Made by a program: the position numbers and the translations under genes
Shown here: piece after piece, positions 1,316-20,767 of the stretch
How the letters are laid out: every line of letters starts with the position of its first letter
How positions within the stretch are numbered: position 1 is the stretch's first letter
Notes under the pieces: generated by a model
Databases searched by the model: none
The model's input: the letters and a program-made list of their open reading frames with translations, nothing else
Told to the model about the DNA's origin: nothing
Source of the DNA: a virus
UHGV virus genome: UHGV-2126844
Strand: one strand, 5' to 3'
Length of the DNA stretch: 20,767 nucleotides

Positions 1316-1420
1316 AATCCGTTGAAGCCTGCTTTTTTATACTAAGTTGGCATTATAAAAAAGCATTGCTTATCAATTTGTTGCAACGAACAGGTCACTA
1401 TCAGTCAAAATAAAATCATT
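1316..1420. other. attL: Prophage attL (B-O-P'): lambda core at 1331-1345, then P' arm with IHF-like site (1371-1383) and Int arm-type repeats (about 1393-1423)
   Basis: Exact 15-bp lambda common core GCTTTTTTATACTAA. Left flank (gaagcct) matches the bacterial B arm; right flank (gttggcattataaaaaagcattgcttatcaatttgttgcaacgaacaggtcactatcagtcaaaataaaatcatt) matches the lambda P' arm. int lies immediately adjacent. Confidence 0.88.
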
Positions 1421-2489
1421 ATTTGATTTCAATTTTGTCCCACTCCCTGCCTCTGTCATCACGATACTGTGATGCCATGGTGTCCGACTTATGCCCGAGA
1501 AGATGTTGAGCAAATTTATCGCTTATCTGCTTCTCATAGAGTCTTGCAGACAAACTGCGCAACTCGTGAAAGGTTGGCGGATCCCCTTCGAAGGAGAGAC
1601 CTGATGCTTTTCGTGCGCGCATAAAATACCTTGATACTGTGCCGGATGAAAGCGGTTCACGACGAGTAGATGCAATTATGGTTTCTCCGCCAAGAATCTT
1701 TTTGCATTTATCAAGTGTTTCCTTCATTGATATCCCGAGAGCATCAACATGCAATGTTGTTGGGATGGCAATTTTTACGCCTGTTTTGCTTTGCTCGACA
1801 TAAAGATATCCATCTACGATATCAGACCACTTCATTTCGCATAAATCACCAACTCGCTGCCCGGTAACAACAGCCAGTTCCATTGCAAGTCTAAGCCAAC
1901 ATGGTGATGATTCTGCTGCTTGATAAATTTTCAGGTATTCGTCAGCCGTAAGTCTTGATCTCCTTACCTCTGATTTTGCAGCGCGAGTGGCTGCGACCGG
2001 GTTTGTTGTTATATGGCCTTCAGCCATAGCCTCTCGGAATGCATCGCTCAGTGTTGATCTGATTAACTTGGCTGATGCCGCCTTTCCCTCGTCTATGTAT
2101 CCATTGAGCATTGCCGCAATTTCTTTTGTGGTGATGTCTTCAAGTGGAGCATCAGGCAGACCCCTCCTTATTGCTTTAATTTTGCTCATGTAATTTATGA
2201 GTGTCTTCTGCTTGATTCCTCTGCTGGCCAGGATTTTTTCGTAGCGATCAAGCCATGAATGTAACGTAACGGAATTATCACTGTTGATTCTCGCTGTCAG
2301 AGGCTTGTGTTTGTGTCCTGAAAATAACTCAATGTTGGCCTGTATAGCTTCAGTGATTGCGATTCGCCTGTCTCGGCCTAATCCAAACTCTTTACCCGTC
2401 CTTGGGTCCCTGTAGCAGTAATATCCATTGTTTCTTATATAAAGGTTAGGGGGTAAATCCCGGCGCTCATGACTTCGCCTTCTTCCCAT
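1419..2489 (-). CDS. int: Lambda-type tyrosine integrase Int (356 aa)
   Basis: Full-length ORF ending at the P' arm. Translation matches lambda Int as recalled (MGRRRSHERRDLPPNLYIRNNGYYCYRDPRTGKEFGLGRD...; catalytic region HELRSLSARLY ... LLGHKSDTMASQYRDDRG). Confidence 0.97.
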   Translation of the reverse strand: MGRRRSHERRDLPPNLYIRNNGYYCYRDPRTGKEFGLGRDRRIAITEAIQANIELFSGHKHKPLTARINSDNSVTLHSWLDRYEKILASRGIKQKTLINYMSKIKAIRRGLPDAPLEDITTKEIAAMLNGYIDEGKAASAKLIRSTLSDAFREAMAEGHITTNPVAATRAAKSEVRRSRLTADEYLKIYQAAESSPCWLRLAMELAVVTGQRVGDLCEMKWSDIVDGYLYVEQSKTGVKIAIPTTLHVDALGISMKETLDKCKKILGGETIIASTRREPLSSGTVSRYFMRARKASGLSFEGDPPTFHELRSLSARLYEKQISDKFAQHLLGHKSDTMASQYRDDRGREWDKIEIK

Positions 2490-2685
2490 TTCTGATCCTC
2501 TTCAAAAGGCTACCTGTTACTGGTCGATTTAAGTCAACCTTTACCGCTGATTCGTGGAACAGATATTCTCTTCCATCCTTAACCGGAGGAGGGAATATCC
2601 TGCATTCGCGCACCCATCGACGAACTGTTTCAAGGCTTCTTGGGCGTCGCTGGCGAGCGTTCCACTCCTGAAGTGTCAAGTACAT
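2467..2685 (-). CDS. xis: Excisionase Xis (72 aa)
   Basis: 72-aa ORF overlapping the int start, as in lambda. Translation MYLTLQEWNARQRRPRSLETVRRWVRECRIFPPPVKDGREYLFHESAVKVDLNRPV... matches lambda Xis as recalled. Confidence 0.95.
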   Translation of the reverse strand: MYLTLQEWNARQRRPRSLETVRRWVRECRIFPPPVKDGREYLFHESAVKVDLNRPVTGSLLKRIRNGKKAKS

Positions 2686-2711
2686 CGCAAAGTCTCCGCA
2701 ATTACACGCAA

Positions 2712-2733
2712 GAAAAAACCGCCATCAGGCGGC
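2712..2733 (-). terminator. Candidate rho-independent terminator on the minus strand (stem ccgcc/ggcgg, loop tgat, then UUUUUUCUU) overlapping the stop of the 55-aa ORF, just upstream of xis
   Basis: Read directly: plus strand aaaaaaccgccatcaggcgg; the minus-strand RNA forms a GC hairpin followed by a U-run. Strength and function not tested. Confidence 0.45.
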
Positions 2734-2892
2734 TTGGTGTTCTTTCAGTTCTTCAATTCGAATATTGGTTATGTCTGCATGTGCTATCTGCGCCCATATC
2801 ATCCAGTGGTCATAGCAGTCATTGATGTTCTCTGCTTCGATAACTCTGTTGAATGGTTCTCCATTCCATTCACCTGTGACTCGGAAGTGCAT
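2725..2892 (-). CDS. Small 55-aa ORF in the position and length of lambda's unnamed ORF upstream of xis
   Basis: ATG at 2892 preceded by GGAG; translation MHFRVTGEWNGEPFNRVIEAENINDCYDHWMIWAQIAHADITNIRIEELKEHQAA. Below the 60-aa cut-off of the supplied track; found by manual translation. Offset from int/xis matches my recollection of the lambda map. Confidence 0.55.
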   Translation of the reverse strand: MHFRVTGEWNGEPFNRVIEAENINDCYDHWMIWAQIAHADITNIRIEELKEHQAA

Positions 2893-2974
2893 TTATCATC
2901 TCCATAAAACAAAACTCGCCGTAGCGAGTTCAGATATAATTTCCACCAAAGGCAGTAGTTGCTGATGCTAAGAA

Positions 2975-3431: not shown

Positions 3432-3770
3432 TTATATCATTAATTTTGTTTCGTGCCAGCCTTTGGTCACCCAGCATTGTGAGTCACCATTACACGGGCA
3501 TGAATTAACAGGAACTCTCTCGCCGCACTTACCGCAACGTTTTCTGCTGATCGATTTTATACGCCAGCGCACACGTGCATCATCCTGGCGGCTCAGTAAC
3601 GCGATGTACTCACCAAACTCGTAAGGCGCATGCCTGAAGCGGCGCGTGGCTCAGTTACGATCCAGCATTTCAATTTCCTGAGCATCAAGTACAAGCTCCA
3701 GCTTACGCATACCGGATGATGCTTGCTTGGCTCTCTGATCGACTTTGCGCTCTGCTGATGATTTAGCCAT
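3432..3770 (-). pseudogene. 112-codon frame encoding a ribbon-helix-helix-like N-terminus and a C-terminal zinc ribbon (CGKCG...CPCN...C), interrupted by an in-frame TGA at 3651-3653; nonsense-disrupted gene or two very small genes
   Basis: Manual translation: MAKSSAERKVDQRAKQASSGMRKLELVLDAQEIEMLDRN-stop-ATRRFRHAPYEFGEYIALLSRQDDARVRWRIKSISRKRCGKCGERVPVNSCPCNGDSQCWVTKGWHETKLMI. RBS AGGAAAAG before ATG at 3770. No in-frame ATG after the TGA; only a GTG about 46 codons from the end. Confidence 0.4.
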
Positions 3771-3964
3771 TCTGCTTTTCCTGCATTAGGAGAAAGACAA
3801 TCATGGCGGCGCGGATACTTCCGGTATCTTTTTACTCGATATTACCCTTCAATGGCACATACAAGAAGAGAGCCATCAACAGGAGTGAGTGAGGAATCGA
3901 CAACCAGCAACTCTTAATTATCTATAGTGTCGTATTTGCTTCATAAAATATGGCGAATAACACA

Positions 3965-3998
3965 AAGCCCGCAGCAGCTCATTGTGCGGGCTTTTCTT
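3965..3998 (-). terminator. Candidate intrinsic terminator hairpin (9-bp stem aagcccgca/tgcgggctt, 11-nt loop) between the 204-aa gene and the downstream operon; U-rich on both strands
   Basis: Read directly: plus aagcccgcagcagctcattgtgcgggcttttctt; minus-strand RNA has the same stem followed by uuugugUUaUU. Confidence 0.45.
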
Positions 3999-4063
3999 AT
4001 ACATACTTCCTAGAGATAATTCTATGGAGGCATTAAATTAATACTGTCATTGGTAATATCATA

Positions 4064-4678
4064 TTATCTAAAAGTCTTTCCACTTTTAACGTCTAGGTAT
4101 ATTCTGTTCGACAACGTCATTCCTCCGCAATATGTGAAATAGATGTTTTTCCCCTTATTGCTTGATGCCATCCACCCTCCGATTTCCTTAAAGTCGCTTT
4201 CCGTGCAGACCCCTTCGTTTATTAACTTCCTAGCTGCCGAAGAAAACTCTTTTTTGTATATACGGTAGTCATCAGATCCTTTGATTAAAGTATCATCTCC
4301 GCTCGCATTTTCAGCAGGATCTGATGGCCTTTCACTGCTAAGATCACTAAGTTTAACCCATTCTGAAAACTTGCCATTGACGATTCCGTTTTTTCTTGTG
4401 CAGGATTTATTACCTTCTTTAATATATTCGCTTTCCCCTCCCACACATGAGGCTGAATATGGCTCAGTTATACGAACCCATTCACCTTTTTTTTCTAGAA
4501 AATCTACGCCTTCCCTGAAAAATAGTTTCCCAGCCACTCCACATTTACTTGAAGGGCAGGTATGTCTTTCCGTTCGATCAACAACAACCCAAAGTCTTGA
4601 TTCATTTTTTGCCATTGCCGATGGTATTTGAGATGAGACAATTAACGTAAGCCCTAAAATTAGTATTGATTTTTTCAT
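4064..4678 (-). CDS. Secreted or periplasmic cysteine-rich hypothetical protein (204 aa) with a cleavable signal peptide; prophage cargo
   Basis: N-terminus MKKSILILGLTLIVSSQIPSAMA-KNES is a typical Sec signal peptide with an AxA cleavage site. Mature part has 7 Cys and two similar ...GxW/FxEWV+... segments. RBS AAGGAA before ATG. Terminator-like hairpin downstream. Not a lambda gene. Confidence 0.65.
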   Translation of the reverse strand: MKKSILILGLTLIVSSQIPSAMAKNESRLWVVVDRTERHTCPSSKCGVAGKLFFREGVDFLEKKGEWVRITEPYSASCVGGESEYIKEGNKSCTRKNGIVNGKFSEWVKLSDLSSERPSDPAENASGDDTLIKGSDDYRIYKKEFSSAARKLINEGVCTESDFKEIGGWMASSNKGKNIYFTYCGGMTLSNRIYLDVKSGKTFR

Positions 4679-4976
4679 TGTAATTTCCTTTTACTTTTTA
4701 CAAAGCGTTTAATCATGGCTGATTATCTTTAAGCGTAGTAACAGCCTTGTGCGAAACATGTTACCAAATCGCCATTTCAGTGTATCCGCAGTTAGGCTGC
4801 CACTTCAAGGATTCCTAATTACATGGTACGTAAGCGTAAAATCCCGTTGGTTGTCGGGTAATAACTCTGATCAAATCTCCCTTGTCTTTTGCTCTTACGT
4901 ATGCAGCTCTTGTGTATTCAACCCAGGCCTCCAGTTCAGCAATACGCTTACTTCCATCCGAGATAACACCTTCTAC

Positions 4977-5228
4977 TCACGCTGCTCGTTGAGTTTTGAT
5001 TTTTGCTGTCTCCAGCTCAACACGCAGTTTCCTCACCGTTAGCGCAATATCCTCGTTCTCCTGGTCGCGGCGTTTGATGTACTGCTGGTTTCTTTCCCGT
5101 TCATCCAGCAGTGTCAGCACAATCGATGGTGTTACCAGCTCATGGAAAAGGTCCGCGTCAAATCCCCAGTTGTCATGCATTGCCTGCTCTGCCGCTTCAC
5201 GCAGTGCCTGAGAGTGAATTACGCTCAC
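4977..5228 (-). CDS. 83-aa ORF at the ea22 position, translationally coupled to orf73 (GTGA overlap); the same frame continues for 53 codons past an in-frame TGA (4977-4979) to TAG at 4815-4817
   Basis: Track ORF MSVIHSQALREAAEQAMHDNWGFDADLFHELV...KTQRAA (the M is a GTG start). Manual translation after the TGA: VEGVISDGSKRIAELEAWVEYTRAAYVRAKDKGDLIRVITRQPTGFYAYVPCN. Assignment to ea22 is by position only. Confidence 0.5.
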   Translation of the reverse strand: MSVIHSQALREAAEQAMHDNWGFDADLFHELVTPSIVLTLLDERERNQQYIKRRDQENEDIALTVRKLRVELETAKIKTQRAA

Positions 5229-5446
5229 TTCGAACCTCTCTGTTTACTGATAAGTTCCAGATCCTCCTGGCAACTTGCACAAGTCCGACAACCCTGAACG
5301 GCCAGGCGTCTTCGTTCATCTATCGGATCGCCACACTCACAACAATGAGTGGCAGATATAGCCTGGTGGTTCAGGCGGCGCATTTTTATTGCTGTGTTGC
5401 GCTGTAATTCTTCAATTTCTGATGCTGAATCAATGATGTCTGCCAT
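5225..5446 (-). CDS. orf73: TraR/DksA-family C4 zinc-finger protein (73 aa), lambda Orf73-like
   Basis: 73-aa ORF with CxxC...CxxC (CCECGDPIDERRRLAVQGCRTCASCQ), characteristic of TraR-like RNA-polymerase-binding proteins. Size and position between the ea22 region and exo match lambda orf73 as recalled. Confidence 0.8.
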   Translation of the reverse strand: MADIIDSASEIEELQRNTAIKMRRLNHQAISATHCCECGDPIDERRRLAVQGCRTCASCQEDLELISKQRGSK

Positions 5447-5495
5447 CTTTCATTAATCCCTGAATTGTTGGTTAATACGCTTGAGGGTGAATGCG

Positions 5496-5522
5496 AATAA
5501 TAAAAAAGGAGCCTGTAGCTCC
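5496..5522 (-). terminator. Candidate rho-independent terminator on the minus strand (stem ggagc/gctcc, then UUUUUUAUUAUU) between the 5545-5826 ORF and orf73; possibly a tL-type terminator of the early-left operon
   Basis: Read directly: plus aataataaaaaaggagcctgtagctcc; minus RNA hairpin followed by a U-run. Identity with a named lambda terminator not verified. Confidence 0.45.
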
Positions 5523-5544
5523 CTGATGATTTTGCTTTTCATGT

Positions 5545-5826
5545 TCACCGTTCCTTAAAAACGCCGTTTAACATGCCGATTGCTAGACTTAAATGAGTCG
5601 GTGTGAATCCCATCAGCGTTACCGTTTCGCGGTGCTTCTTCAGTACGCTACGGCAAATGTCATCGACGTTTTTATCCGGAAACTGCTGTCTGGCTTTTTT
5701 GATTTCAGAATTAGCCTGACGGGCAATGCTGCGAAGGGCGTTTTCCTGCTGAGGTGTCACTGAACAAGCCCCATGTCGGCAAGCATAAGCACACAGAATA
5801 TGAAGCCCGCTGCCAGAAAAATGCAT
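5545..5826 (-). CDS. Hypothetical early-left ORF (up to 93 aa; true start uncertain) in the orf61 region
   Basis: Track ORF ending ...ETVTLMGFTPTHLSLAIGMLNGVFKER. Overlapped in another frame by a 27-aa hydrophobic ORF (MTTTECIFLAAGFIFCVLMLADMGLVQ, 5757-5840) that is start/stop-coupled to orf63. I could not reconcile either frame with lambda orf61 from memory. Confidence 0.35.
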   Translation of the reverse strand: MHFSGSGLHILCAYACRHGACSVTPQQENALRSIARQANSEIKKARQQFPDKNVDDICRSVLKKHRETVTLMGFTPTHLSLAIGMLNGVFKER

Positions 5827-8920: not shown

Positions 8921-9012
8921 CATACCTTTTGATTTTGTAAAATCAATTCGTAATAATAAAGTCATCGGAGCTTGAACAACTCCGGTGACTTCTGCGCTAA
9001 ACGGGGACGTTT

Positions 9013-9114
9013 ATGCGCACATACAATCCAAACTCTCTTCTCCCTTCACAGATGCAGAAATGCACCTGCGATTTTTTGCATCCAGCGTCTGACCTCTGCG
9101 GAGGTGAAGCGTGA
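9013..9114 (+). CDS. ylcH: DLP12-type small protein YlcH (33 aa)
   Basis: Manual translation [33 protein letters not shown]. Stop overlaps the GTG start of the next gene. Below the track cut-off. Name from recalled DLP12 gene order. Confidence 0.5.
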
Positions 9115-9566
9115 ACCTACCACAAGATGGCATCAAACTGCATCGCGGTAACTTCACCGCTATCGGCCAGCAGATCCAGCCTTATCTGGAGGACGGAAAA
9201 TGCTTTCGCATGGTGCTTAAACCGTGGCGTGAGAAACGCAGTCTTTCCCAGAATGCACTCAGCCACATGTGGTACAGCGAAATCAGTGAATACCTCATCA
9301 GCAGGGGGAAATCGTTCGCTACCGCAGCATGGGTAAAAGATGCTCTCAAACACACATACCTCGGTTATGAAACCAAGGACCTGGTTGATGTCGTAACCGG
9401 CGAAATCACTACTATCCAGTCGTTACGCCATACCTCCGATCTTGATACCGGAGAGATGTATATCTTCCTGTGTAAGGTTGAAGCCTGGGCGGTGAATATT
9501 GGCTGCCACCTGACTATTCCGCAGAGCTGCGAGTTCCAGCAGCTCCGCGACAAACAGGAGGCGTAA
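9111..9566 (+). CDS. ybcN: YbcN-like prophage protein (151 aa, GTG start)
   Basis: Translation [55 protein letters not shown]... recognised as DLP12 YbcN. RBS GAGGTGAAG upstream. Confidence 0.78.
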
Positions 9567-9736
9567 TGGCTACACCGCTTATTCGTGTCATGAACGGACA
9601 CATCTACAGAGTACCAAATCGTCGTAAGCGTAAACCGGAGCTGAAGCCTTCCGAAATACCAACACTGCTCGGATATACCGCCAGCCTGGTTGATAAAAAA
9701 TGGTTGCGACTGGCAGCAAGGAGGAGTCATGGCTGA
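9566..9736 (+). CDS. ninE: NinE-family protein (56 aa)
   Basis: Manual translation [56 protein letters not shown]. Start overlaps the ybcN stop (TAATG). Below the track cut-off. Confidence 0.7.
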   Translation: MATPLIRVMNGHIYRVPNRRKRKPELKPSEIPTLLGYTASLVDKKWLRLAARRSHG

Positions 9737-10019
9737 TTTGAGAAAAGCAGCGCGTGGTCGGGAATGCCAGGTAAGAATCCCTGGCGTATGTAATGGCAAC
9801 CCTGAAACGTCTGTACTGGCACATATCCGGCTGACTGGATTGTGCGGCACCGGTACGAAACCGCCAGACCTGATTGCCACCATTGCATGTTCTGCCTGCC
9901 ACGACGAAATCGACCGCCGCACACATTTTGTCGATGCTGCATATGCAAAAGAATGCGCGCTGGAAGGTATGGCGAGAACACAGGTTATCTGGCTGAAAGA
10001 GGGGGTTATTAAGGCGTGA
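9729..10019 (+). CDS. ybcO: YbcO-like prophage protein with a Cys-rich motif (96 aa)
   Basis: From the internal ATG at 9729 (RBS GGAGGAG): [64 protein letters not shown]... Recognised as DLP12 YbcO. Confidence 0.78.
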
Positions 10020-10378
10020 ATACCTACAGCATCACATTACCCTGGCCTCCGAGCAATAATCGCTATTACCGCCATAATCGCGGGCGCACACACATCAGCG
10101 CAGAAGGGCAGGCATACCGCGATAACGTCACCCGAATCATTAAAAACGCAATGCTGGATATCGGCCTGGCTATGCCAGTGAAAATCCGTATTGAGTGCCA
10201 CATGCCGGATCGCCGTCGCCGTGACCTGGATAATCTGCAAAAAGCCGCTTTTGACGCACTCACCAAAGCAGGTTTCTGGCTGGATGATGCTCAGGTCGTT
10301 GATTACCGCGTTGTGAAGATGCCTGTTACCAAAGGTGGGAGGCTGGAACTGACCATCACCGAAATGGGGAATGAATGA
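10016..10378 (+). CDS. rusA: Holliday-junction resolvase RusA (120 aa)
   Basis: Translation [97 protein letters not shown]... matches RusA as recalled. Confidence 0.95.
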
Positions 10379-10515
10379 TGTTTGAGTTTAATATGGCAGA
10401 ACTTCTTCGCCACCGCTGGATGCGCCTGCGCTTATATCGTTTCCCCAGTTCTGTTTTGACCGATTACCGAATACTGAGGAATTACGCCAAAACCCTGACA
10501 GGAGCAGGAGTATGA
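10378..10515 (+). CDS. ylcG: YlcG-like small protein (45 aa)
   Basis: Manual translation [45 protein letters not shown]. Start overlaps the rusA stop (TGATG). Confidence 0.55.
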   Translation: MFEFNMAELLRHRWMRLRLYRFPSSVLTDYRILRNYAKTLTGAGV

Positions 10516-10600
10516 AGTCAGAGATAACAATCAACTAATACTGTTTTATTGATTTTTGCTTGTAATTGGCGTTCTGGTCTGATTTTTGTGGAGTAAGTTG

Positions 10601-10984
10601 ATGCGTGATATTCAGATGGTTCTTGAGCGTTGGGGAGCGTGGGCGGCTAATAATCATGAAGATGTGACCTGGTCGTCCATTGCCGCCGGTTTTAAGGGAT
10701 TAATTACTTCAAAAGTAAAATCTCGCCCGCAATGTTGTGACGATGACGCGATGATCATTTGCGGGTGCATGGCCCGTCTGAAAAAGAACAACAGCGATTT
10801 GCACGATTTATTAGTAGATTATTATGTAGTCGGTATGACATTCATGTCACTGGCAGGTAAGCATTGCTGCTCTGATGGTTATATCGGGAAAAGGTTACAG
10901 AAGGCTGAGGGTATAATTGAAGGGATGTTAATGGCATTAGATATCCGGTTAGAGATGGATATCGTTGTTAATAACTCTAATTAA
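10601..10984 (+). CDS. quuD: Q-family late-gene antiterminator (QuuD / phage 82 type), 127 aa
   Basis: From ATG at 10601 (RBS GGAG): [60 protein letters not shown]..., with the Cys-rich zinc motif typical of Q proteins. The track's longer version starts at an upstream TTG. Confidence 0.85.
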
Positions 10985-11000
10985 TATGCCAATTGTTTAC

Positions 11001-11037
11001 TAAAAATTATTAAAAATGGGGCGTTGAGACGCCCCCA
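11001..11037 (-). terminator. Rho-independent terminator on the minus strand downstream of nmpC (stem ggggcg/cgcccc, loop tctcaa, then AUUUUUAAUAAUUUUU)
   Basis: Read directly: plus taaaaattattaaaaatggggcgttgagacgcccc. Confidence 0.5.
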
Positions 11038-11172
11038 AAAATAAAGGGTAATATATAACAGAAGGTTTATATAGTTAGAAGCAAGGTTGTGCTCCTAAAG
11101 GAAGTGGCTTGAGGGAGCCACTTATATGTTGGGGAGGCAAAGCCTCCCGCAACATATCTTTTAGTAATCAAA

Positions 11173-12255
11173 TTAGAACTGGTAAACCATACCTACAGCA
11201 ACGATATCATCGGTAGCAACGCCAGATGCTTTCGTGAAATCGCTCTTATCAATCAGGTTGATTTTGTAATCAACAAAAGTGGACATATTTTTGTTGAAGT
11301 AATAGGTTGCACCTACATCAATATATTCAACCAGGTCCTGATCACCCCACGCACCCAAGTCTTTTCCTTTAGATTGCAGGTAAGCAACGGACGGACGCAG
11401 ACCGAAGTCGAACTGATATTGTGCAACTACTTCGAAGTTTTGTGCTTTGTTGGCAATATGGTTATTACCAAAAACAGTCATGTTCTGGGTTTCAGAATAG
11501 GTGGTAGCCAGATAGATGTTGTTCGCATCATATTTCAGACCAGCTGCCCATACTTCAGCATTTTGACCAGATGCATTCAGGCTGTTGTTACCGTAGATAA
11601 CCTGATTATTAGTGCGGTCAGATTTAGCATAGGTTGCACCTACACCGAATCCTTCATACTCATAAGTAGTGGAGAAACCGAAACCATCACCATTAGCTTC
11701 AGTTACGTCAGTGCGGTCATTTTTACCCTGATACTGAGCAGCAAAGTTCAGACCATCAACCAGACCAAAGAAGTCATTGTTACGATAAGTTGCAACACCT
11801 GTGGTGCGACCAGTCATGAATACATCTGTTTGGGTCCAGGTATCGCCACCGAATTCTGGCAGAACGTCGGTCCATGCACCAATATCGTATGCTACACCGT
11901 AGTTACGGCCATAATCGATGGAGCCGTAGTCACCGAATTTCAGGCCAGCGAAGGCAAGACGGGTTTTATCTTTGGAGGAACCTTGAGATTCAGCGCGGTT
12001 GCCTTTGAATTCATATTCCCACTGACCGAAACCAGTCAGTTGATCGTTGATTTGGGTTTCACCTTTGAAGCCAAGACGGGCATAAGTAGTATCACCATCA
12101 TCTGCATCATTAGAGGAGAAGTAGTGCTTAGCATTAACTTTCCCGTACAGATCCAGCTTGTTACTGTCTTTATTATAAATTTCAGCTGCCTGAGCAGACA
12201 TCGCCATCAGTACTGATGCAGCTACAGCAGAAATTGCCACTGTTAATTTTTTCAT
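11173..12255 (-). CDS. nmpC: OmpC/OmpF-family general porin NmpC, apparently intact (360 aa precursor)
   Basis: Start taken at [23 protein letters not shown] (signal peptide); ends ...VAVGMVYQF with the C-terminal Phe typical of porins. Uninterrupted frame. Lies opposite in orientation between Q and the lysis genes. Confidence 0.9.
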
Positions 12256-12681
12256 CGTGAGCCCTTTTTTTGAACTATTATTAAAAAATGATGTCACTGC
12301 GCGATAAATATTCATCTAATCAATGTGATTATTTCAAGATGTAAGTTTTGGTTTCTCATTTGATTTGTGAAGTAGATCTCTATTTTTATCTGAACTTTTT
12401 CTATCGAATCCTATTCATGGCTCTTGGCTGAATAAAAATAAATCTATTAGCCAATTTATATTAATGGCTGTTATTTATAAGTGCTCTATAATTTGAAGAT
12501 TCAATTTAAACCAGCTAAAAATAACGCTGGAAATTATTTGTTGGTTATTTGTTGAGATTTGCTTATGTATTTGTAGTGGTGTTTTCAATACTCGGTAGCA
12601 TTCTCGCAAATATCATTTAGTGGTTTACGTACGTAAAAAATTGGTTATGCTGTTAAGAGTGGTTACTTCGTCACACAGCTT

Positions 12682-12716
12682 AAACCCGCCGTCGAGCGGG
12701 TTTTTCCATTTTTTGA
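12682..12716 (+). terminator. Rho-independent terminator on the plus strand (stem aaacccgc/gcgggttt, then UUCCAUUUUUU) upstream of the holin gene; candidate tR'-like terminator of a short late leader transcript
   Basis: Read directly: aaacccgccgtcgagcgggtttttccattttttgag. A promoter-like TTTACG-16 nt-TATGCT lies about 60 nt upstream. The tR' assignment is inference from lambdoid late-operon architecture. Confidence 0.45.
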
Positions 12717-12842
12717 GTCTCGATATTAGCTGATAACCCAATACCTGAGTTATTCACTGACTCCGAGTCTGTTACGTTTCTGCTTTTTTGCGATACGTTG
12801 TATTCCCTCAATTTACACCCGCTTTGTCTGCGAGGTGGGGTT

Positions 12843-13058
12843 ATGAAATCCATGGATAAGTTAACAACGGGTGTCGCCTATGGCACCTCAGCAGGTAGTG
12901 CCGGTTACTGGTTTTTACAGCTGCTCGATAAAGTCACGCCCTCACAGTGGGCAGCAATAGGTGTGCTGGGTAGCCTGGTATTTGGCCTGCTGACGTACCT
13001 GACAAACCTTTATTTCAAGATTAAAGAAGATAAGCGCAAGGCTGCGAGAGGTGAATAA
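12843..13058 (+). CDS. essD: Class II holin (EssD / S21-like), 71 aa
   Basis: From ATG at 12843: [71 protein letters not shown]; two TM segments and a charged C-terminus. Confidence 0.85.
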
Positions 13059-13555
13059 TGCCTCCATCATTACGAAAAGCCGTTGCTGCTGCTATTGGTG
13101 GCGGAGCAATTGCTATAGCATCAGTGTTAATTACTGGCCCAAGTGGTAACGATGGTCTGGAAGGTGTCAGCTACGTACCATACAAAGATATCGTTGGCGT
13201 ATGGACTGTATGTCACGGACACACCGGAAAAGACATCATGCTCGGTAAAACGTATACCAAAGCAGAATGCAAAGCACTCTTGAATAAAGACCTTGCCACT
13301 GTCGCCAGACAAATTAACCCGTACATCAAAGTCGATATACCGGAAACAACGCGCGGCGCTCTTTACTCATTCGTTTACAACGTGGGTGCTGGCAATTTCA
13401 GAACATCGACGCTTCTTCGCAAAATAAACCAGGGCGATATCAAAGGCGCATGTGATCAGCTACGTCGCTGGACATATGCTGGCGGTAAGCAATGGAAAGG
13501 TCTCATGACTCGTCGTGAGATTGAGCGTGAAATCTGTTTGTGGGGTCAGCAATGA
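13058..13555 (+). CDS. rrrD: Phage lysozyme / endolysin (RrrD-like), 165 aa
   Basis: Start overlaps the holin stop (TAATG). Translation [59 protein letters not shown]... recognised as the DLP12-type lysozyme. Confidence 0.9.
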
Positions 13556-14013
13556 ACAGAGTAACCGCGATTATCTCCGCTCTGGTTATCTGCATCATCG
13601 TCTACCTGTCATGGGCTGTTAATCATTACCGTGATAACGCCATTACCTACAAAGCCCAGCGCGACAAAAATGCCAGAGAACTGAAGCTGGCGAACGCGGC
13701 AATTACTGACATGCAGATGCGTCAGCGTGATGTTGATGCGCTCGATGCAAAATACACGAAGGAGTTAGCTGATGCGAAAGCTGAAAATGATGCTCTGCGT
13801 GATGATGTTGCCGCTGGTCGTCGTCGGTTGCACATCAAAGCAGTCTGTCAGTCAGTGCGTGAAGCCACCACCGCCTCCGGCGTGGATAATGCAGCCTCCC
13901 CCCGACTGGCAGACACCGCTGAACGGGATTATTTCACCCTCAGAGAGAGGCTGATCACTATGCAAAAACAACTGGAAGGAACCCAGAAGTATATTAATGA
14001 GCAGTGCAGATAG
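13552..14013 (+). CDS. rzpD: Inner-membrane spanin Rz (RzpD), 153 aa
   Basis: From ATG at 13552 overlapping the endolysin stop: [60 protein letters not shown]...; N-terminal TM anchor and coiled-coil region. Confidence 0.85.
13772..13954 (+). CDS. rzoD: Outer-membrane lipoprotein spanin Rz1 (RzoD), 60 aa, embedded in the +1 frame of Rz
   Basis: [24 protein letters not shown]... with a lipobox and a proline-rich tail ([18 protein letters not shown]); classic embedded Rz1 arrangement. Confidence 0.8.
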
Positions 14014-14044
14014 AGTTGCCCATATCGATGGGCAACTCATGCAA

Positions 14045-14338
14045 TTATTGTGAGCAATACACACGCGCTTCCAGCGGAGTATAAATGCCTAAAGTAATAA
14101 AACCGAGCAATCCATTTACGAATGTTTGCTGGGTTTCTGTTTTAACAACATTTTCTGCGCCGCCACAAATTTTGGCTGCATCGACAGTTTTCTTCTGCCC
14201 AATTCCAGAAACGAAGAAATGATGGGTGATGGTTTCCTTTGGTGCTACTGCTGCCGGTTTGTTTTGAACAGTAAACGTCTGTTGAGCACATCCTGTAATA
14301 AGCAGGGCCAGCGCAGTAGCGAGTAGCATTTTTTTCAT
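14045..14338 (-). CDS. borD: Bor lipoprotein (serum-resistance family), 97 aa
   Basis: MKKMLLATALALLITGCAQQTFTVQNKPAAVAPKETITHHFFVSGIGQKKTVDAAKICGGAENVVKTETQQTFVNGLLGFITLGIYTPLEARVYCSQ matches lambda Bor as recalled. Confidence 0.9.
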   Translation of the reverse strand: MKKMLLATALALLITGCAQQTFTVQNKPAAVAPKETITHHFFVSGIGQKKTVDAAKICGGAENVVKTETQQTFVNGLLGFITLGIYTPLEARVYCSQ

Positions 14339-14628
14339 GGTGTTATTCCCGATGCTTTTTGAAGTTCGCAGAATCGTATGTGTAGAAAATTAAACAAACC
14401 CTAAACAATGAGTTGAAATTTCATATTGTTAATATTTATTAATGTATGTCAGGTGCGATGAATCGTCATTGTATTCCCGGATTAACTATGTCCACAGCCC
14501 TGACGGGGAACTTCTCTGCGGGAGTGTCCGGGAATAATTAAAAACGATGCACACAGGGTTTAGCGCGTACACGTATTGCATTATGCCAACGCCCCGGTGC
14601 TGACACGGAAGAAACCGGACGTTATGAT

Positions 14629-15042
14629 TTAGCGTGGAAAGATTTGTGTAGTGTTCTGAATGCTCTCAGTAAATAGTAATGAATTATCAAAGGTATAGTA
14701 ATATCTTTTATGTTCATGGATATTTGTAACCCATCGGAAAACTCCTGCTTTAGCAAGATTTTCCCTGTATTGCTGAAATGTGATTTCTCTTGATTTCAAC
14801 CTATCATAGGACGTTTCTATAAGATGCGTGTTTCTTGAGAATTTAACATTTACAACCTTTTTAAGTCCTTTTATTAACACGGTATTATCGTTTTCTAACA
14901 CGATGTGAATATTATCTGTGGCTAGATAGTAAATATAATGTGAGACGTTGTGACGTTTTAGTTCAGAATAAAACAATTCACAGTTTAAATCTTTTCGCAC
15001 TTGATCGAATATTTCTTTAAAAATGGCAACCTGAGCCATTGG
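14629..15042 (-). CDS. ybcV: YbcV-like protein of the lambda right-end region (136 aa from the RBS-supported ATG)
   Basis: Start chosen at [18 protein letters not shown]... with RBS GGAAGG upstream. The track's 177-aa version begins at an upstream GTG with no RBS. The surrounding DNA matches the lambda right end between bor and cos as recalled. Confidence 0.65.
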
Positions 15043-15324
15043 TAAAACCTTCCATGTGATACGAGGGCGCGTAGTTTGCATTATCGTTTTTATCGTTTCA
15101 ATCTGGTCTGACCTCTTTGTGTTTTGTTGATGATTTATGTCAAATATTAGGAATGTTTTCACTTAATAGTATTGGTTGCGTAACAAAGTGCGGTCCTGCT
15201 GGCATTCTGGAGGGAAATACAACCGACAGATGTATGTAAGGCCAACGTGCTCAAATCTTCATACAGAAAGATTTGAAGTAATATTTTAACCGCTAGATGA
15301 AGAGCAAGCGCATGGAGCGACAAA

Positions 15325-15531
15325 ATGAATAAAGAACAATCTGCTGATGATCCCTCCGTGGATCTGATTCGTGTAAAAAATATGCTTAATAGCACCATTT
15401 CTATGAGTTACCCTGATGTTGTAATTGCATGTATAGAACATAAGGTGTCTCTGGAAGCATTCAGAGCAATTGAGGCAGCGTTGGTGAAGCACGATAATAA
15501 TATGAAGGATTATTCCCTGGTGGTTGACTGA
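15325..15531 (+). CDS. ybcW: YbcW-like small protein (68 aa)
   Basis: [68 protein letters not shown]; recognised from the DLP12 / lambda right-end region. Confidence 0.7.
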
Positions 15532-15695
15532 TCACCATAACTGCTAATCATTCAAACTATTTAGCCTGTGACAGAGCCAACACGCAGTCTGTCACTGTCA
15601 GGAAAGTGGTAAAACTGCAACTCAATTACTGCAATGCCCTCGTAATTAAGTGAATTTACAATATCGTCCTGTTCGGAGGGAAGAACGCGGGATGT

Positions 15696-15890
15696 TCATT
15701 CTTCATCACTTTTAATTGATGTATATGCTCTCTTTTCTGACGTTAGTCTCCGACGGCAGGCTTCAATGACCCAGGCTGAGAAATTCCCGGACCCTTTTTG
15801 CTCAAGAGCGATGTTAATTTGTTCAATCATTTGGTTAGGAAAGCGGATGTTGCGGGTTGTTGTTCTGCGGGTTCTGTTCTTCGTTGACAT
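15696..15890 (-). CDS. ylcI: YlcI-like ribbon-helix-helix-type small protein (64 aa)
   Basis: MSTKNRTRRTTTRNIRFPNQMIEQINIALEQKGSGNFSAWVIEACRRRLTSEKRAYTSIKSDEE; basic N-terminus then a strand-helix-helix pattern. Sits just upstream of cos. Confidence 0.65.
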   Translation of the reverse strand: MSTKNRTRRTTTRNIRFPNQMIEQINIALEQKGSGNFSAWVIEACRRRLTSEKRAYTSIKSDEE

Positions 15891-16039
15891 GAGGTTGCCC
15901 CGTATTCAGTGTCGCTGATTTGTATTGTCTGAAGTTGTTTTTACGTTAAGTTGATGCAGATCAATTAATACGATACCTGCGTCATAATTGATTATTTGAC
16001 GTGGTTTGATGGCGTAGATGCACGTTGTGACATGTAGAT

Positions 16040-16280
16040 GATAATTATTATCATTTTGCGGGTCCTTTCCGGCGATCCGACAGGTTACGGGGCGGCGACC
16101 TCGCGGGTTTTCGCTATTTATGAAAATTTTCCGGTTTAAGGCGTTTCCGTTCTTCTTCGTCATAACTTAATGTTTTTATTTAAAATACCCTCTGAAAAGA
16201 AAGGAAGCGACAGGTGCTGAAAGCGAGCTTTTTGGCCTCTGTCGTTTCCTTTCTCTGTTTTTGTCCGTGGAATGAACAAT
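16040..16280. other. cos: Lambda-type cos site: cosN 12-nt cohesive end GGGCGGCGACCT at 16090-16101, flanked by cosQ-side sequence (...caggttacg) and the cosB region up to the Nu1 start
   Basis: The sequence ...gatccgacaggttacg|gggcggcgacct|cgcgggttttcgctatttatgaaaattttccggtttaaggcgtttccgttcttcttcgtcataacttaatg... matches the joined lambda right and left ends as recalled. Confidence 0.88.
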
Positions 16281-16905
16281 GGAAGTCAACAAAAAGCAGC
16301 TGGCTGACATTTTCGGTGCGAGTATCCGTACCATTCAGAACTGGCAGGAACAGGGAATGCCCGTTCTGCGAGGCGGTGGCAAGGGTAATGAGGTGCTTTA
16401 TGACTCTGCCGCCGTCATAAAATGGTATGCCGAAAGGGATGCTGAAATTGAGAACGAAAAGCTGCGCCGGGAGGTTGAAGAACTGCGGCAGGCCAGCGAG
16501 GCAGATCTCCAGCCAGGGACTATTGAGTACGAACGCCATCGACTTACGCGTGCGCAGGCCGACGCACAGGAACTGAAGAATGCCAGAGACTCCGCTGAAG
16601 TGGTGGAAACCGCATTCTGTACTTTCGTGTTGTCGCGGATCGCAGGTGAAATTGCCAGTATTCTCGACGGGATCCCCCTGTCGGTGCAGCGGCGTTTTCC
16701 GGAACTGGAAAACCGACATGTTGATTTCCTGAAACGGGATATCATCAAAGCCATGAACAAAGCAGCCGCGCTGGATGAACTGATACCCATAGTATTAGCG
16801 GGACTGCAAATAGTGCCGGTGCGCACCAACACAAGAGTTCCGGTGCATTTGGTGGCACGAACACGAGCATTTTCCCTAATGGTTATACCGCGATTTCAAA
16901 TCTAA
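16279..16905 (+). pseudogene. nohD: Terminase small subunit Nu1/NohD, C-terminally truncated: homology for about 170 codons to about 16789, then reads out of frame into tail-fibre DNA
   Basis: MEVNKKQLADIFGASIRTIQNWQEQGMPVLRGGGKGNEVLYDSAAVIKWYAERD...KAAALDELIP matches lambda Nu1; after ELIP the ORF diverges (IVLAGLQIVPVRTNTRV...) where lambda has GLLSEYIEQSG. No terminase large subunit follows. Confidence 0.82.
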
Positions 16906-17165
16906 GCGCGGGGATTATGAGCACAACAAGCGGTAGTGGCCAGACTCGTAATGCAGGGAAGACATCATCAGATGGTGCTCATACCCACTCGCTGTCCGGC
17001 ACTGCTGCAAGCGCAGGCGCACATGCACATACTGTCGGTATTGGTGCTCATACGCACTCCGTTGCGATTGGCTCACACGGACACACCATCACCGTTAACG
17101 CTGCTGGTAACGCGGAAAACACCGTCAAAAACATCGCATTTAACTATATTGTGAGGCTTGCATAA
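16790..17165 (+). pseudogene. 3' fragment of a side-tail-fibre gene (lambda Stf-like C-terminus with His-x-His repeats), joined to nohD by deletion
   Basis: In-frame translation ...[101 protein letters not shown]; no start codon and no N-terminal fibre domains. Confidence 0.72.
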
Positions 17166-17746
17166 TGGCATTCAGAATGAGTGAACAACCACGGACCATA
17201 AAAATTTATAATCTGCTGGCCGGAACTAATGAATTTATTGGTGAAGGTGATGCATATATTCCGCCTCATACAGGTCTGCCAGCAAACAGTACCGATATTG
17301 CACCGCCAGATATTCCGGCTGGCTTCGTGGCTGTTTTCAACAGTGATGAGTCATCGTGGCATCTTGTTGAAGACCATCGGGGTAAAACAGTTTATGACGT
17401 GGCATCAGGGGACGCGTTATTTATTTCTGAACTCGGCTCATTACCGGAAAATGTTACCTGGTTATCCCCGGAAGGGGAGTTTCAGAAGTGGAACGGCACA
17501 GCCTGGGTGAAGGATACGGAAGCAGAAAAACTGTTCCGGATCCGGGAGGTGGAAGAAACAAAAAACAGCCTGATGCAGGTAGCCAGTGAGCATATAGCGC
17601 CGCTTCAGGATGCTGTGGATCTGGAAATCGCAACGGAGGAAGAAACCTTGTTGCTGGAAGCCTGGAAAAAGTATCGGGTATTGCTGAACCGTGTTGATAC
17701 GTCAACTGCACAGGATATTGAATGGCCAGTAGCACCTATAGGGTAA
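17165..17746 (+). CDS. tfa: Tail-fibre assembly protein Tfa (193 aa)
   Basis: [62 protein letters not shown]... matches lambda Tfa as recalled; start overlaps the stf stop (TAATG). Confidence 0.9.
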
Positions 17747-18604
17747 ATTCGTAATGATTACCTAAATACGTTATTCTTTTGTTCAAAAAGTGATTTTGCT
17801 ATAGATAGGGAGTATGTTCTTGGATTAAGAATAAAAATCGCCATGAAAGAGCTTCATGGCGAGTACATAAACGTACAAAATGTGATGAAAGTAGAGTGGC
17901 GTAAGCCACTATATTAAGATGTGACAATAGCGAAGAAAAGTAAATAACATTTTATGGACGTTTAATTGTTAATTATAAAAACTAGAGTGCCCGATATTGT
18001 TTACCTTGCTTTAAAATAATGTACTCAAACCAAATTTTTGAGCTAAAAGCTCAAATAATATAAATGCAATAATAATGTTTAATAAGACAATTAGCTTGCT
18101 TTGTATTTTCATTTCGGAATACTGTTAAGTAACTTTGATGACCCTAACAATAGATCGGAATTTTCTTAGAGTCAATGGTCACTGTTTTTGCTTGCAAAGC
18201 AAATGTTTTGGTGGTTATAAGTTGTCTTAATATAGTCACGCATGCAACTTGTTCCATGCGGAGATTAAAGATTGGAATATAACGCTAAGATGGAATTAAA
18301 TTACATTTGCAATAATCAATTTATTATTACGCAATAATTACCGATATTATTATTGTAAATTAATCATTAGAGTGCAAAAAGAAATGTAACGGCAAAATAA
18401 GAGGACGATAGCTGAGAAAAAAGCGTGCTTTCCCAATCTGGGGCAAATCACGTCTGAATGACACCTGAAAACAGGTGGTAGCCTCAAGAAGGCTTGGAAT
18501 ATTCTTCTTTAATGTTATGTAATTCATTGATTTTTCGTGTACGATTTAAAGACATTTATTCCAAGAAAAATTTTTAACTCTTTGATTTTTCGACTCTGTA
18601 TCAT

Positions 18605-18666
18605 CGGTCTCGAAAACCGGAGTAGGGGCAACTCTACCGGGGGTTCAAATCCCCCTCTCTCCGCCA
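18605..18666 (+). tRNA. Partial tRNA-Ser (3' about 62 nt: anticodon arm with CGA anticodon, long variable arm, T-arm, 3' acceptor strand and CCA); the 5' 30 nt are absent, so not a functional gene
   Basis: CGGTCTCGAAAACCGGAGTAGGGGCAACTCTACCGGGGGTTCAAATCCCCCTCTCTCCGCCA matches the 3' two-thirds of E. coli tRNA-Ser(CGA) as recalled. No complementary 5' acceptor strand (GGAGAGA) upstream. Confidence 0.75.
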
Positions 18667-19250
18667 CTTTATCAATGACTTATCTCCCGACTTCCCGCCT
18701 TGCTTTTCCTAAACAGAACAATCGTAGAATATTCTTGAAGGGTTAGATCGTCACTGTTTTCTGTTCGATACTGTGACATTCAGCACTTGATTCGCTATGG
18801 ATCTGACAGGAAGGTTTTGAGCGAAAATTTGCAGTTATTCAGTCGTTTTCTTATCGGTCACCATTATTCTTTTAGACATTGATCCTACAAAGCTGCCGCA
18901 AAGTTGGTGGTGGGAACTGAAGTTGCGTAGAGAAGGGGTCAATACCCGGAGGCAAACATGGGCTGGCAAAAGTGTAGCGGTATTAGGCGCAGCTATTTAG
19001 CCTAGTTATGTTTTATGAAAACTTGATATCATATAAGTGTCTTACTTATTGGCTGTAAATAAGTTTTTCCTAAGGAATTGTTTCTTGAGTATCATTTGTA
19101 ACTGTAACGGAATTTATAATCCTTTGCTTTATTGTTACGGTATTTTTTATCACACCCTATTTTTTATGTGGTTTTTTATACTGAAGTTTGGCAAAGTGAA
19201 CTTTATATGCATATACTTCATCCTGGTTTCAGTTAAGTTGGGTGGATGAT

Positions 19251-19994
19251 ATGGCAACTACATGTTCAGTTATATTGATTTTGGAGTCCTTTGATGTTTA
19301 TTTCGGAAAAGAGAGTGTGTTTCTGGAGAGAGGTTCATCTGTACTTGTCGACTCTAGCTCTAGAGATTTTTTCCTGACATATCCTGAAAGAGTGATAGTG
19401 GCGGATTTTGGCGCTGAGTTTATTAGTCGCTATTTGAAAGCTAATAACTTAAGGGATATTTCTGATTGTAGGGAATATCCATCTTATTTAAAAATAAACT
19501 TTGCTGACTTCAGTTTAATTAAAGGATTAATTAGTTGGGCTAATCACTGTGCTGAATACATAGAAATTTTTGATGAGTCTATTGCTTTTACATGTCTCTC
19601 TGCATTTTCTTCTGAAAAACAATTTGGAGTATTTCTGTTTGAATGTTTGAAAAGCACAGGGGCTAAAGTTAAAACGATTATTCATACGGATTTATCTGCA
19701 CCATGGCGTCTTAAGGATATATCATCAAGATTATATCTCAGCGAAAGTTTACTAAAGAGGAAATTGAAAGAAGAGGGGGTATCATTCAGTAAGATCATAC
19801 TTGATGAGAGGATGCAAATGGCTGAATATTTACTCAGCACTCGTTGTTATCCTATTAGTAAAGTAGCTAAGGTCTGTGGTTATGCCAGTGTCTCATACTT
19901 TACTTATGTATTTAGACGTTATTTTGGTGTTTCTCCAAGTCAATACTCTCAGAGCAGTTCAGAAAGTAAAATTCTTACTCACCAGGGAATCTGA
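19251..19994 (+). CDS. AraC/XylS-family transcriptional regulator (about 247 aa), AppY/EnvY-like
   Basis: C-terminal double helix-turn-helix typical of AraC proteins (WRLKDISSRLYLSESLLKRKLKEEGVSFSKIILDERMQMAEYLLSTRCYPISKVAKVCGYASVSYFTYVFRRYFGVSPSQY). Recognisably related but not identical to AppY as recalled. Long AT-rich leader. Start may instead be the GTG at 19242. Confidence 0.78.
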   Translation: MATTCSVILILESFDVYFGKESVFLERGSSVLVDSSSRDFFLTYPERVIVADFGAEFISRYLKANNLRDISDCREYPSYLKINFADFSLIKGLISWANHCAEYIEIFDESIAFTCLSAFSSEKQFGVFLFECLKSTGAKVKTIIHTDLSAPWRLKDISSRLYLSESLLKRKLKEEGVSFSKIILDERMQMAEYLLSTRCYPISKVAKVCGYASVSYFTYVFRRYFGVSPSQYSQSSSESKILTHQGI

Positions 19995-20035
19995 TCATTG
20001 TTCTTGCCCCCTTATTTCCAGACAGGGGGTGTATC

Positions 20036-20503
20036 TTAAGTTAACGTTACCCGCTGACGTCGATATTCTCGCGGAGAGCGATAACCCAACGCACTGTGCG
20101 GATGGTTTTCATTGTAATGTTCGATCGCCACTGCAAGATTATGCAATGCCGTTCTTACATTCGGTTTCGGCATGAACGCGATGTAGTCTTCCTTCATCGT
20201 TTTCACGAACCTTTCTGCCATTCCATTACTCTGAGGACTGCTGATTGCCGTTGTGCAGGGCTCCAGATTCAACTCTCTGGCGAACTGCCATGTTTCATGC
20301 GCTCTATACGCTGAACCGTTATCTGTCAGCCACTGGATGGACTGTTCCGGTACTTTATCGCCAAAGCGTTTTTCTATCGCTCCTAACATGACATCCTGCA
20401 CTGTCGCTTTATCGTAACCTCCCGTGCTTGCGGCCCAGTCTATGGCTTCACGATCGCAACAGTCCAGGGCGAACGTAACACGCAGTTTTGAATCGCCACG
20501 GGT
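20036..20503 (-). pseudogene. IS3-family transposase OrfB fragment (C-terminal integrase/DDE core, about 155 codons, no start)
   Basis: Open frame [48 protein letters not shown]...[22 protein letters not shown]. The upstream part is missing; the frame is closed by TAA at 20504-20506. Confidence 0.72.
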
Positions 20504-20551
20504 TTAACAGACACCTCAGAGTCATTTAAGATGGCTTAAAGAGAGGTGCCC

Positions 20552-20767
20552 ATGAGCGGTAAGCGTTATCCCGAAGAGTTTAAAACTGAAGCAGTCAAAC
20601 AGGTTGTTGATCGCGGTTATTCTGTTGCCAGCGTTGCAACACGTCTCGATATCACCACCCACAGCCTTTATGCCTGGATAAAGAAGTACGGTCCGGATTA
20701 CTCCACTTTTTCATCAAGCCAATCCGCCCACCACTGCATCATTTCTCTGCGCTTATCGAGATACTGA
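20552..20767 (+). CDS. IS3-family transposase OrfA (HTH N-terminal part, 71 aa to a TGA at the window end); may be truncated or frameshifted
   Basis: MSGKRYPEEFKTEAVKQVVDRGYSVASVATRLDITTHSLYAWIKKYGPD is a typical IS3-family OrfA helix-turn-helix. The tail (YSTFSSSQSAHHCIISLRLSRY) does not look like the usual leucine-zipper region. Confidence 0.65.
   Translation: MSGKRYPEEFKTEAVKQVVDRGYSVASVATRLDITTHSLYAWIKKYGPDYSTFSSSQSAHHCIISLRLSRY

Follow-up and report, generated by a model that had tools for sequence, protein, structure and literature searches.

The window, a 20,767-nucleotide stretch of the virus genome UHGV-2126844, carries towards its right end an intact open reading frame (ORF) on the + strand, which ends at 19994 and starts at GTG 19242 or ATG 19251. 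For the identical sequence in Escherichia coli RM10410, the RefSeq annotation selects ATG 19251, leading to a protein of 247 aa (WP_000246057.1), and a ribosome-binding site, GGTGGA (19241-19246), is found 5 nt before this codon. The product of the coding sequence 19251-19994 combines a YdeO/GadW-like N-terminal domain with an AraC double helix-turn-helix in the C-terminal part (about residues 145-240). The Pfam models HTH_AraC (PF00165) and HTH_18 (PF12833) both matched residues 161-237, with 60.7 bits against a gathering threshold of 26.6 and 57.8 bits against 33.6, respectively. The protein thus possesses the C-terminal double helix-turn-helix domain of approximately 100 residues that defines the AraC/XylS family. 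Comparison with solved DNA-binding domains placed that of GadX (3mkl) closest (E 2e-23), followed by CsvR, Rns and ToxT, and a full-length match to phrog_1450 was obtained (E 3.6e-94). The gene and its proximal upstream DNA have a G+C content of 34-35%.

Profile and pairwise comparisons located the protein among the acid-resistance regulators without assigning it to any named member. The best NCBIfam model was YdeO (NF007407), which covered residues 4-237 with 148.7 bits against an equivalog cut-off of 348, and the GadX model (NF007432) reached 109.2 bits against a cut-off of 500 over residues 105-242 only. The score lies far under every NCBIfam equivalog cut-off, and the RefSeq name is only 'AraC family transcriptional regulator'. 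Identity along the full length amounted to 34.7% with YdeO and 33.5% with GadW, and GadX was 34.8% identical within the C-terminal 161 aa only. AppY shared 28.8% over 233 aa, short of orthology, and the 38.6% identity to EnvY was limited to the C-terminal 127 aa and did not extend to the full-length protein. The initial annotation had described an AppY/EnvY-like AraC regulator. Its family assignment is confirmed by the two Pfam models above their gathering thresholds, and the label 'AppY/EnvY-like' proved a loose one, correct as to AraC kinship, but passing over YdeO (35%) and GadW (33%) as the nearer relatives. The further statement that the protein is distinct from both AppY and EnvY holds in view of the low AppY identity and the partial EnvY match, and the proposed acid-type function agrees with its position in the group that controls acid-resistance genes.

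Among prophage-encoded proteins, a group of 243-aa AraC regulators (P0013-P0016) displayed 52% identity to the window protein over nearly the full length, and PsrA, assigned to the locus tag ECs_1087 (PMC13502914) and compared here as the extended Sakai frame, displayed 37%, likewise over nearly the full length. PsrA and PsrB share 90% identity, and the 37% identity to the extended ECs_1087 frame leaves the window protein outside this pair. The 243-aa group was also considered as PsrA/PsrB and rejected, because it is only 39% identical to ECs_1087 and therefore represents a third group, for which no name was found. The clusters of this group contain up to 1131 members, and its representatives also occur in phages Lambda_ev203, 1H12 and others. 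At the loci examined (P0015; L012 6001-6732, L013 and L014), the gene is situated between the Q antiterminator and holin genes, not after tfa, and is preceded by a lipocalin gene and a DUF1722 gene.

The DNA preceding the regulator gene had been described as an AT-rich leader of about 600 bp. The 583 bp of 18668-19250 indeed contain no convincing ORF and have a lower G+C content (37.4%) than the window (44.3%), but uniform AT-richness is absent: the distal 278 bp are core-chromosome DNA with 41% G+C, and only the proximal 306 bp fall to 34%. This '600-bp leader' is a composite upstream region and is putative as a transcribed leader. The mosaic opens at 18605-18666 (+) with 62 nt of the 3' part of the tRNA-Ser(CGA) gene serU (positions 29-90 of 90), which was recognised by alignment with K-12 serU, while ARAGORN predicted no tRNA anywhere in the window. 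This fragment is a scar of the attR type rather than a functional tRNA. With Rfam at a permissive threshold, the tRNA fragment gave only sub-threshold matches (plastid 3'UTR, tmRNA and sX4), which were regarded as spurious echoes of tRNA-like sequence. It is followed at 18667-18944 (+) by a copy of the core serU-yodB intergenic DNA (278 bp, 41% G+C) that lies directly downstream of serU in K-12. The fragment and flank together are 97.4% identical to K-12 over 340 nt, and the 278-bp flank alone matched at the serU locus in 5405 of 5426 complete E. coli genomes.

The homology to the serU flank stops at a 55-bp right-end remnant of an IS630-family element (18945-18999, +), whose outer end faces the regulator gene. 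This piece showed a 92.9% match to the 3' end of a transposase gene and about 22 nt beyond it on plasmid pJNE23-001_1. The remaining approximately 250 bp (19000-19250, +) are AT-rich, with 34% G+C together with the IS630 piece, and belong specifically to the regulator gene; they are near-identical in Sakai Sp1, where expression of the gene is known. The best promoter-like match, TTGGCA-18-TATACT at 19188-19217, would leave a 5' UTR of about 30 nt. A sigma-70 consensus scan of the region returned 6 promoter-like matches compared with 9.1 expected from shuffled sequences, no better than chance.

On the left, the mosaic abuts phage DNA. The C-terminal remnant of a tail-fibre gene (16783-17165, +) is colinear with the tail-fibre gene of phage ev099 and is annotated in RM10410 by RefSeq as 'phage tail protein, missing N-terminus'. 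It is followed by tfa (17165-17746, +), which encodes a tail-fibre assembly protein of 193 aa (phrog_105, E 9.9e-99; WP_000885613.1) and is 93.5% identical to K-12 tfaD over 417 nt. A strong match to the Rfam family IS009 (17508-17706, +; 218 bits against a gathering threshold of 117) lies wholly within the tfa coding sequence, in its 3' part. Between tfa and the serU fragment, positions 17747-18604 form an AT-rich, non-coding phage spacer with 31% G+C and no credible ORF, which ends at the serU-type attR junction and is also present in phages ev099 and mEp332. A chimeric query composed of the spacer, the serU fragment, its flank and the K-12 continuation towards yodB was fully covered at the native serU locus in 82 genomes. 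Considering that the spacer is found joined to the serU fragment and flank at the native locus, the junction behaves as the attR of a lambdoid phage that integrates at serU. In the avian pathogenic strain APEC O78, the spacer at the native serU locus comes after a tfa remnant. In this strain (L007 5277-7199), the tfa remnant and spacer lie between the copies of a 489-bp direct duplication consisting of serU positions 29-90 and 427 bp of flank, far longer than an ordinary att core duplication.

The minus strand of the spacer has features of its own. Two terminator-like hairpins (18055-18037 and 17862-17838), both with a T run after them, lie there together with a promoter-like site at 18175-18147. 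A 321-nt minus-strand RNA (17825-18145) was predicted to fold better than 100 of 100 shuffled sequences (z = -2.99). Searches of this strand gave no Rfam family, and its small ORFs had no PHROG match; it could correspond to a small phage transcript.

Downstream of the regulator gene, a truncated transposase fragment of the IS3 family, ISEc48-like, occupies 20036-20488 on the minus strand (RefSeq 'integrase core domain-containing protein, missing N-terminus'). Its Sakai counterpart is annotated as 'ISEc48 Family: IS3 partial', and the cassette shared with Sakai ends inside this fragment at 20472. From 20552 to the window end at 20767, the + strand carries the beginning of another truncated transposase of the IS3 family (orfA; RefSeq 'transposase, missing C-terminus'), and in phage ev099 its counterpart, a 'Mobile element protein', is located directly before attP. 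The cassette as a whole spans 1.87 kb and comprises the serU 3' fragment, the 278-bp serU flank, the IS630 end, the regulator gene (patE, see below) and the truncated IS3-family element.

The carrier of this cassette was traced through genomes and isolated phages. The region is 100% identical to many complete E. coli genomes, for example RM10410, in which a defective lambdoid prophage lies between ybhC and ybhB and the region constitutes its right end. At the left junction (attL) of the window, adjoining the integrase gene, positions 1331-1345 (+) contain GCTTTTTTATACTAA, the common core of the lambda att site; it was an exact single match with 0 expected by chance, and it shows that the prophage sits at the lambda attachment site. 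The same core is found in phage ev099 between the IS fragments and int (L018 7740-7754). The int-xis region of the window (1331-2939), of lambda type, is 98.9% identical to that of ev099, the late region (8927-16787) is 96-97% identical to K-12 DLP12, and 16783-20767 is colinear with ev099 (98.7% identical) and mEp332 (98.5%). The gene order in ev099 reads lom, tail fibre and tfa, then after 1.5 kb the regulator gene, IS fragments, att core, int and xis. The RM10410 prophage has an intact ompC/nmpC-type porin gene in its DLP12-like late region, the terminase gene has been fused to a tail-fibre remnant by deletion, and indels around 3639-5807 and 16787 distinguish the window from RM10410. A tblastn search against isolated phages detected the regulator in Escherichia phages PhiR70_1, mEp332 and ev099 at 98-99% identity. 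Phages ev099 and mEp332 also hold the piece of core E. coli chromosome equivalent to 18605-18944 beside the attR-type scar. The window holds a decayed mosaic prophage of the lambda att site, and the cassette is cargo of the phage b region.

The identity of the regulator was revealed by comparison with E. coli O157:H7 Sakai. The window protein and ECs_0287 are both 247 aa long and agree at 245 of 247 residues without gaps (99.2%). Of the two differences, E131 in place of G falls in the N-terminal domain or linker, and S235 in place of R falls in the C-terminal tail. ECs_0287 is the sole AraC-type gene annotated in Sakai Sp1 and represents the AraC-type regulator of prophage CP-933H, where Z0321 is listed as 'putative regulator (prophage CP-933H)' (PMC2907692), and a review gives PatE as z0321 on OI-8 (PMC10877973). 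ECs_0287 and Z0321 were equated on the basis of matching annotations and prophage identity, not of a locus-tag table. At the nucleotide level, window positions 18604-20472 are 99.3% identical to Sakai Sp1 over 1869 nt, including all 647 nt before the start codon, with the identity beginning abruptly at 18604/18605 and ending at 20472. Near-identity over the full length and a shared cassette, with both the upstream region and the downstream IS fragment, are what an orthologue of PatE should display.

Because ECs_0287 matches at 245 of 247 residues and the CP-933H regulator is PatE/Z0321, the gene in the window is assigned as patE, which was first characterised in the enterohaemorrhagic O157:H7 strain EDL933. 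We conclude with high confidence that its product is PatE, an activator carried by phages that would raise acid resistance by binding, in stationary phase, to AT-rich promoters in the acid fitness island. Such a regulator is not new, in that a regulon and a phenotype have been published for an allele two of 247 residues apart. The view that its target genes are unknown, and the novelty this implied, were consequently mistaken, and the initial annotation had itself named identity to a characterised regulator as the outcome that would overturn it, which is essentially what the match to PatE amounts to. The variants P0001, P0002, P0004 and P0006 (306-308 aa) match most of PatE at 99-100% identity but are extended at the N-terminus by about 59 aa or have an altered C-terminus; they may be gene-calling artefacts or short-contig fusions. 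The 'PatE homolog' of Nissle, the object of overexpression in a 2025 preprint, was also considered as this gene and rejected, since a Nissle-derived genome matched only the serU flank and not patE.

The PatE locus of CP-933H/Sp1 resembles the window in the 247-aa product, the same 647-nt upstream DNA starting inside the serU fragment, the truncated IS3-family element downstream and the location in a defective lambdoid prophage, at the end with the tail-fibre genes. The carriers are different. The window represents a lambda-att-site prophage with a DLP12-like late region, and tfa and the 858-bp spacer precede its cassette, whereas the O157 carrier occupies thrW, pinE and a GIY-YIG gene lie to the left of the cassette, and its tRNA match begins 9 nt earlier than that of the window.

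The arrangement also recalls AppY of DLP12, another AraC/XylS regulator, whose gene follows tfa genes where a DLP12-type prophage has its right end. The previously proposed analogy to the tfaX-appY order is genuine, given that the late region of the prophage is 96-97% identical to that of DLP12, and the regulator does lie after tail-fibre genes, with both tfa and the tail-fibre remnant upstream, although tfa is 1.5 kb away. Like PatE, AppY is an activator of gadE and of the AR2 genes for acid resistance, it responds to RpoS as well as to stationary phase, and both proteins share the N-terminal start 'vCSVi.i..sFD'. In contrast, there is no DNA similarity past tfa, the window from 17728 onwards being without a match in the K-12 DLP12 locus, and AppY has an anaerobic and phosphate-starvation regulon (hya, app) that has not been reported for PatE. 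Outside prophages, the best relatives are YdeO, GadW and GadX, which converge on the gadE/hdeA targets of PatE but are encoded in the core genome, while PatE is carried horizontally by phage. PsrA and PsrB of O157:H7 are prophage-borne AraC regulators that act through gadE/hdeA as PatE does.

Previous studies of the O157 allele outline what PatE does. According to the review (PMC10877973), an EDL933 patE mutant showed lowered expression of gadB, gadC, gadE and hdeAB, the activation site on hdeA was mapped to -132 to -45, and 18 genes, six of them genes of the LEE, were down-regulated by PatE. Expression of Z0321 was 6-fold RpoS-dependent (PMC2907692), and the transcriptome literature recorded the induction of ECs0287 at the transition to stationary phase. 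Direct activation of gadE and AR2 has been demonstrated for AppY, and the corresponding paper names PatE and PsrB as parallels.

The targets, RpoS dependence and phenotype are taken from this literature and would apply to the window gene by analogy. With a protein 99% identical to that of O157 and near-identical upstream DNA, patE would be transcribed mainly at the entry into stationary phase in an RpoS-dependent manner. The C-terminal double helix-turn-helix of PatE would then bind AT-rich promoter DNA of the acid fitness island, as at the mapped hdeA site (-132 to -45), and raise the expression of gadE, gadBC and hdeAB, probably resulting in better survival at very low pH. In LEE-positive strains, PatE may in addition reduce expression from the genes for type III secretion. 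The cassette is located between tfa and attP, within the dispensable 'b region' of temperate phages of the lambda type, and patE is therefore a gene of lysogenic conversion (a moron) that feeds into a regulon of the host lying beyond the window.

Two other readings were weighed against PatE. The gene could be a distinct, uncharacterised AppY/EnvY-like paralogue with a regulon of its own still unknown, as was initially supposed; the identity of only 28.8% to AppY, the EnvY likeness confined to the DNA-binding domain, the distance from all NCBIfam equivalog cut-offs (148.7 against 348 for YdeO and 109 against 500 for GadX) and a RefSeq label no more specific than 'AraC family transcriptional regulator' are all in keeping with this. 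However, the 99.2% full-length identity to O157:H7 PatE, along with the shared upstream region and flanks, already refutes such a paralogue, which is regarded as extremely improbable.

It is also very unlikely that patE in this host is an inert passenger, silenced by H-NS for instance and without effect on host physiology. The ORF is intact, with conservation of no less than 98% across about 540 genomes and three isolated phages. In O157, this same upstream sequence is what drives stationary-phase, RpoS-dependent expression, and a phenotype is reported for the EDL933 patE mutant. Inertness finds its arguments in the surroundings, since the gene is flanked by the IS630 end and two truncated IS3-family elements, most structural genes are gone from the prophage, some genomes contain an extra IS (ISKpn26, IS1A or IS2) directly upstream, and the gene and its proximal upstream DNA have only 34-35% G+C. 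Low-G+C DNA of such kind tends to be bound by H-NS. A scan for the H-NS nucleation motif showed nothing in favour of silencing, with 8 matches compared with 8.7 expected and zero upstream of the gene, a result that is uninformative and leaves the low G+C compatible with H-NS. The assignment as PatE is preferred over both readings.

With thresholds of 80% coverage, for upstream region and gene taken together, and 98% identity, patE and its upstream DNA were detected in 542 of 5426 complete E. coli genomes (about 10%). Two types of left junction were distinguished: the window type, beginning at tRNA position 29, in 99 genomes, and the O157/Sp1 type, beginning at about position 20, in 413 genomes. 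Some genomes have part or all of the mosaic replaced by an IS (ISKpn26, IS1A or IS2) that has inserted immediately before patE (L009 5873-7254, L010 6287-7014 and H106); these insertions could alter patE expression.

The origin of the cassette can be addressed only tentatively. The serU attR-type scar and the 278 bp of genuine serU-yodB DNA that open the cassette suggest a capture of host DNA, and it is possible, at somewhat less than even confidence, that the cassette is the fossil of a small island downstream of serU that was taken up by a serU lambdoid phage and spread between prophages. Under this scenario, an aberrant excision of the kind that yields lambda-bio transducing phages would have picked up patE, and recombination would subsequently have moved it into the b region of the viable lambda-att-site phages ev099, mEp332 and PhiR70_1 and into the O157 thrW prophage, with its spread between prophages proceeding through phage and IS homology. 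A chimeric mtfA-serU-flank-patE query found an intact serU directly followed by the flank and patE in 0 of 5426 complete genomes, and the ancestral arrangement is therefore hypothetical. The two left-junction types and the shared right end are compatible with more than one exact history.

The main value of these results is a correction, in that the gene should not be pursued as a new regulator. PatE is not restricted to enterohaemorrhagic E. coli, as its carriers include avian, commensal and environmental isolates. The mosaic upstream region, with its serU scar, host flank and IS630 end, is datable and provides a marker for tracing the moves of the cassette between prophages. If the capture of host DNA is true, a regulator known as 'prophage-encoded' began as a gene of a chromosomal island, and isolated phages keep the scar of its transduction. 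Since viable lambda-like phages carry patE, this activator of acid resistance is transferable by lysogeny.
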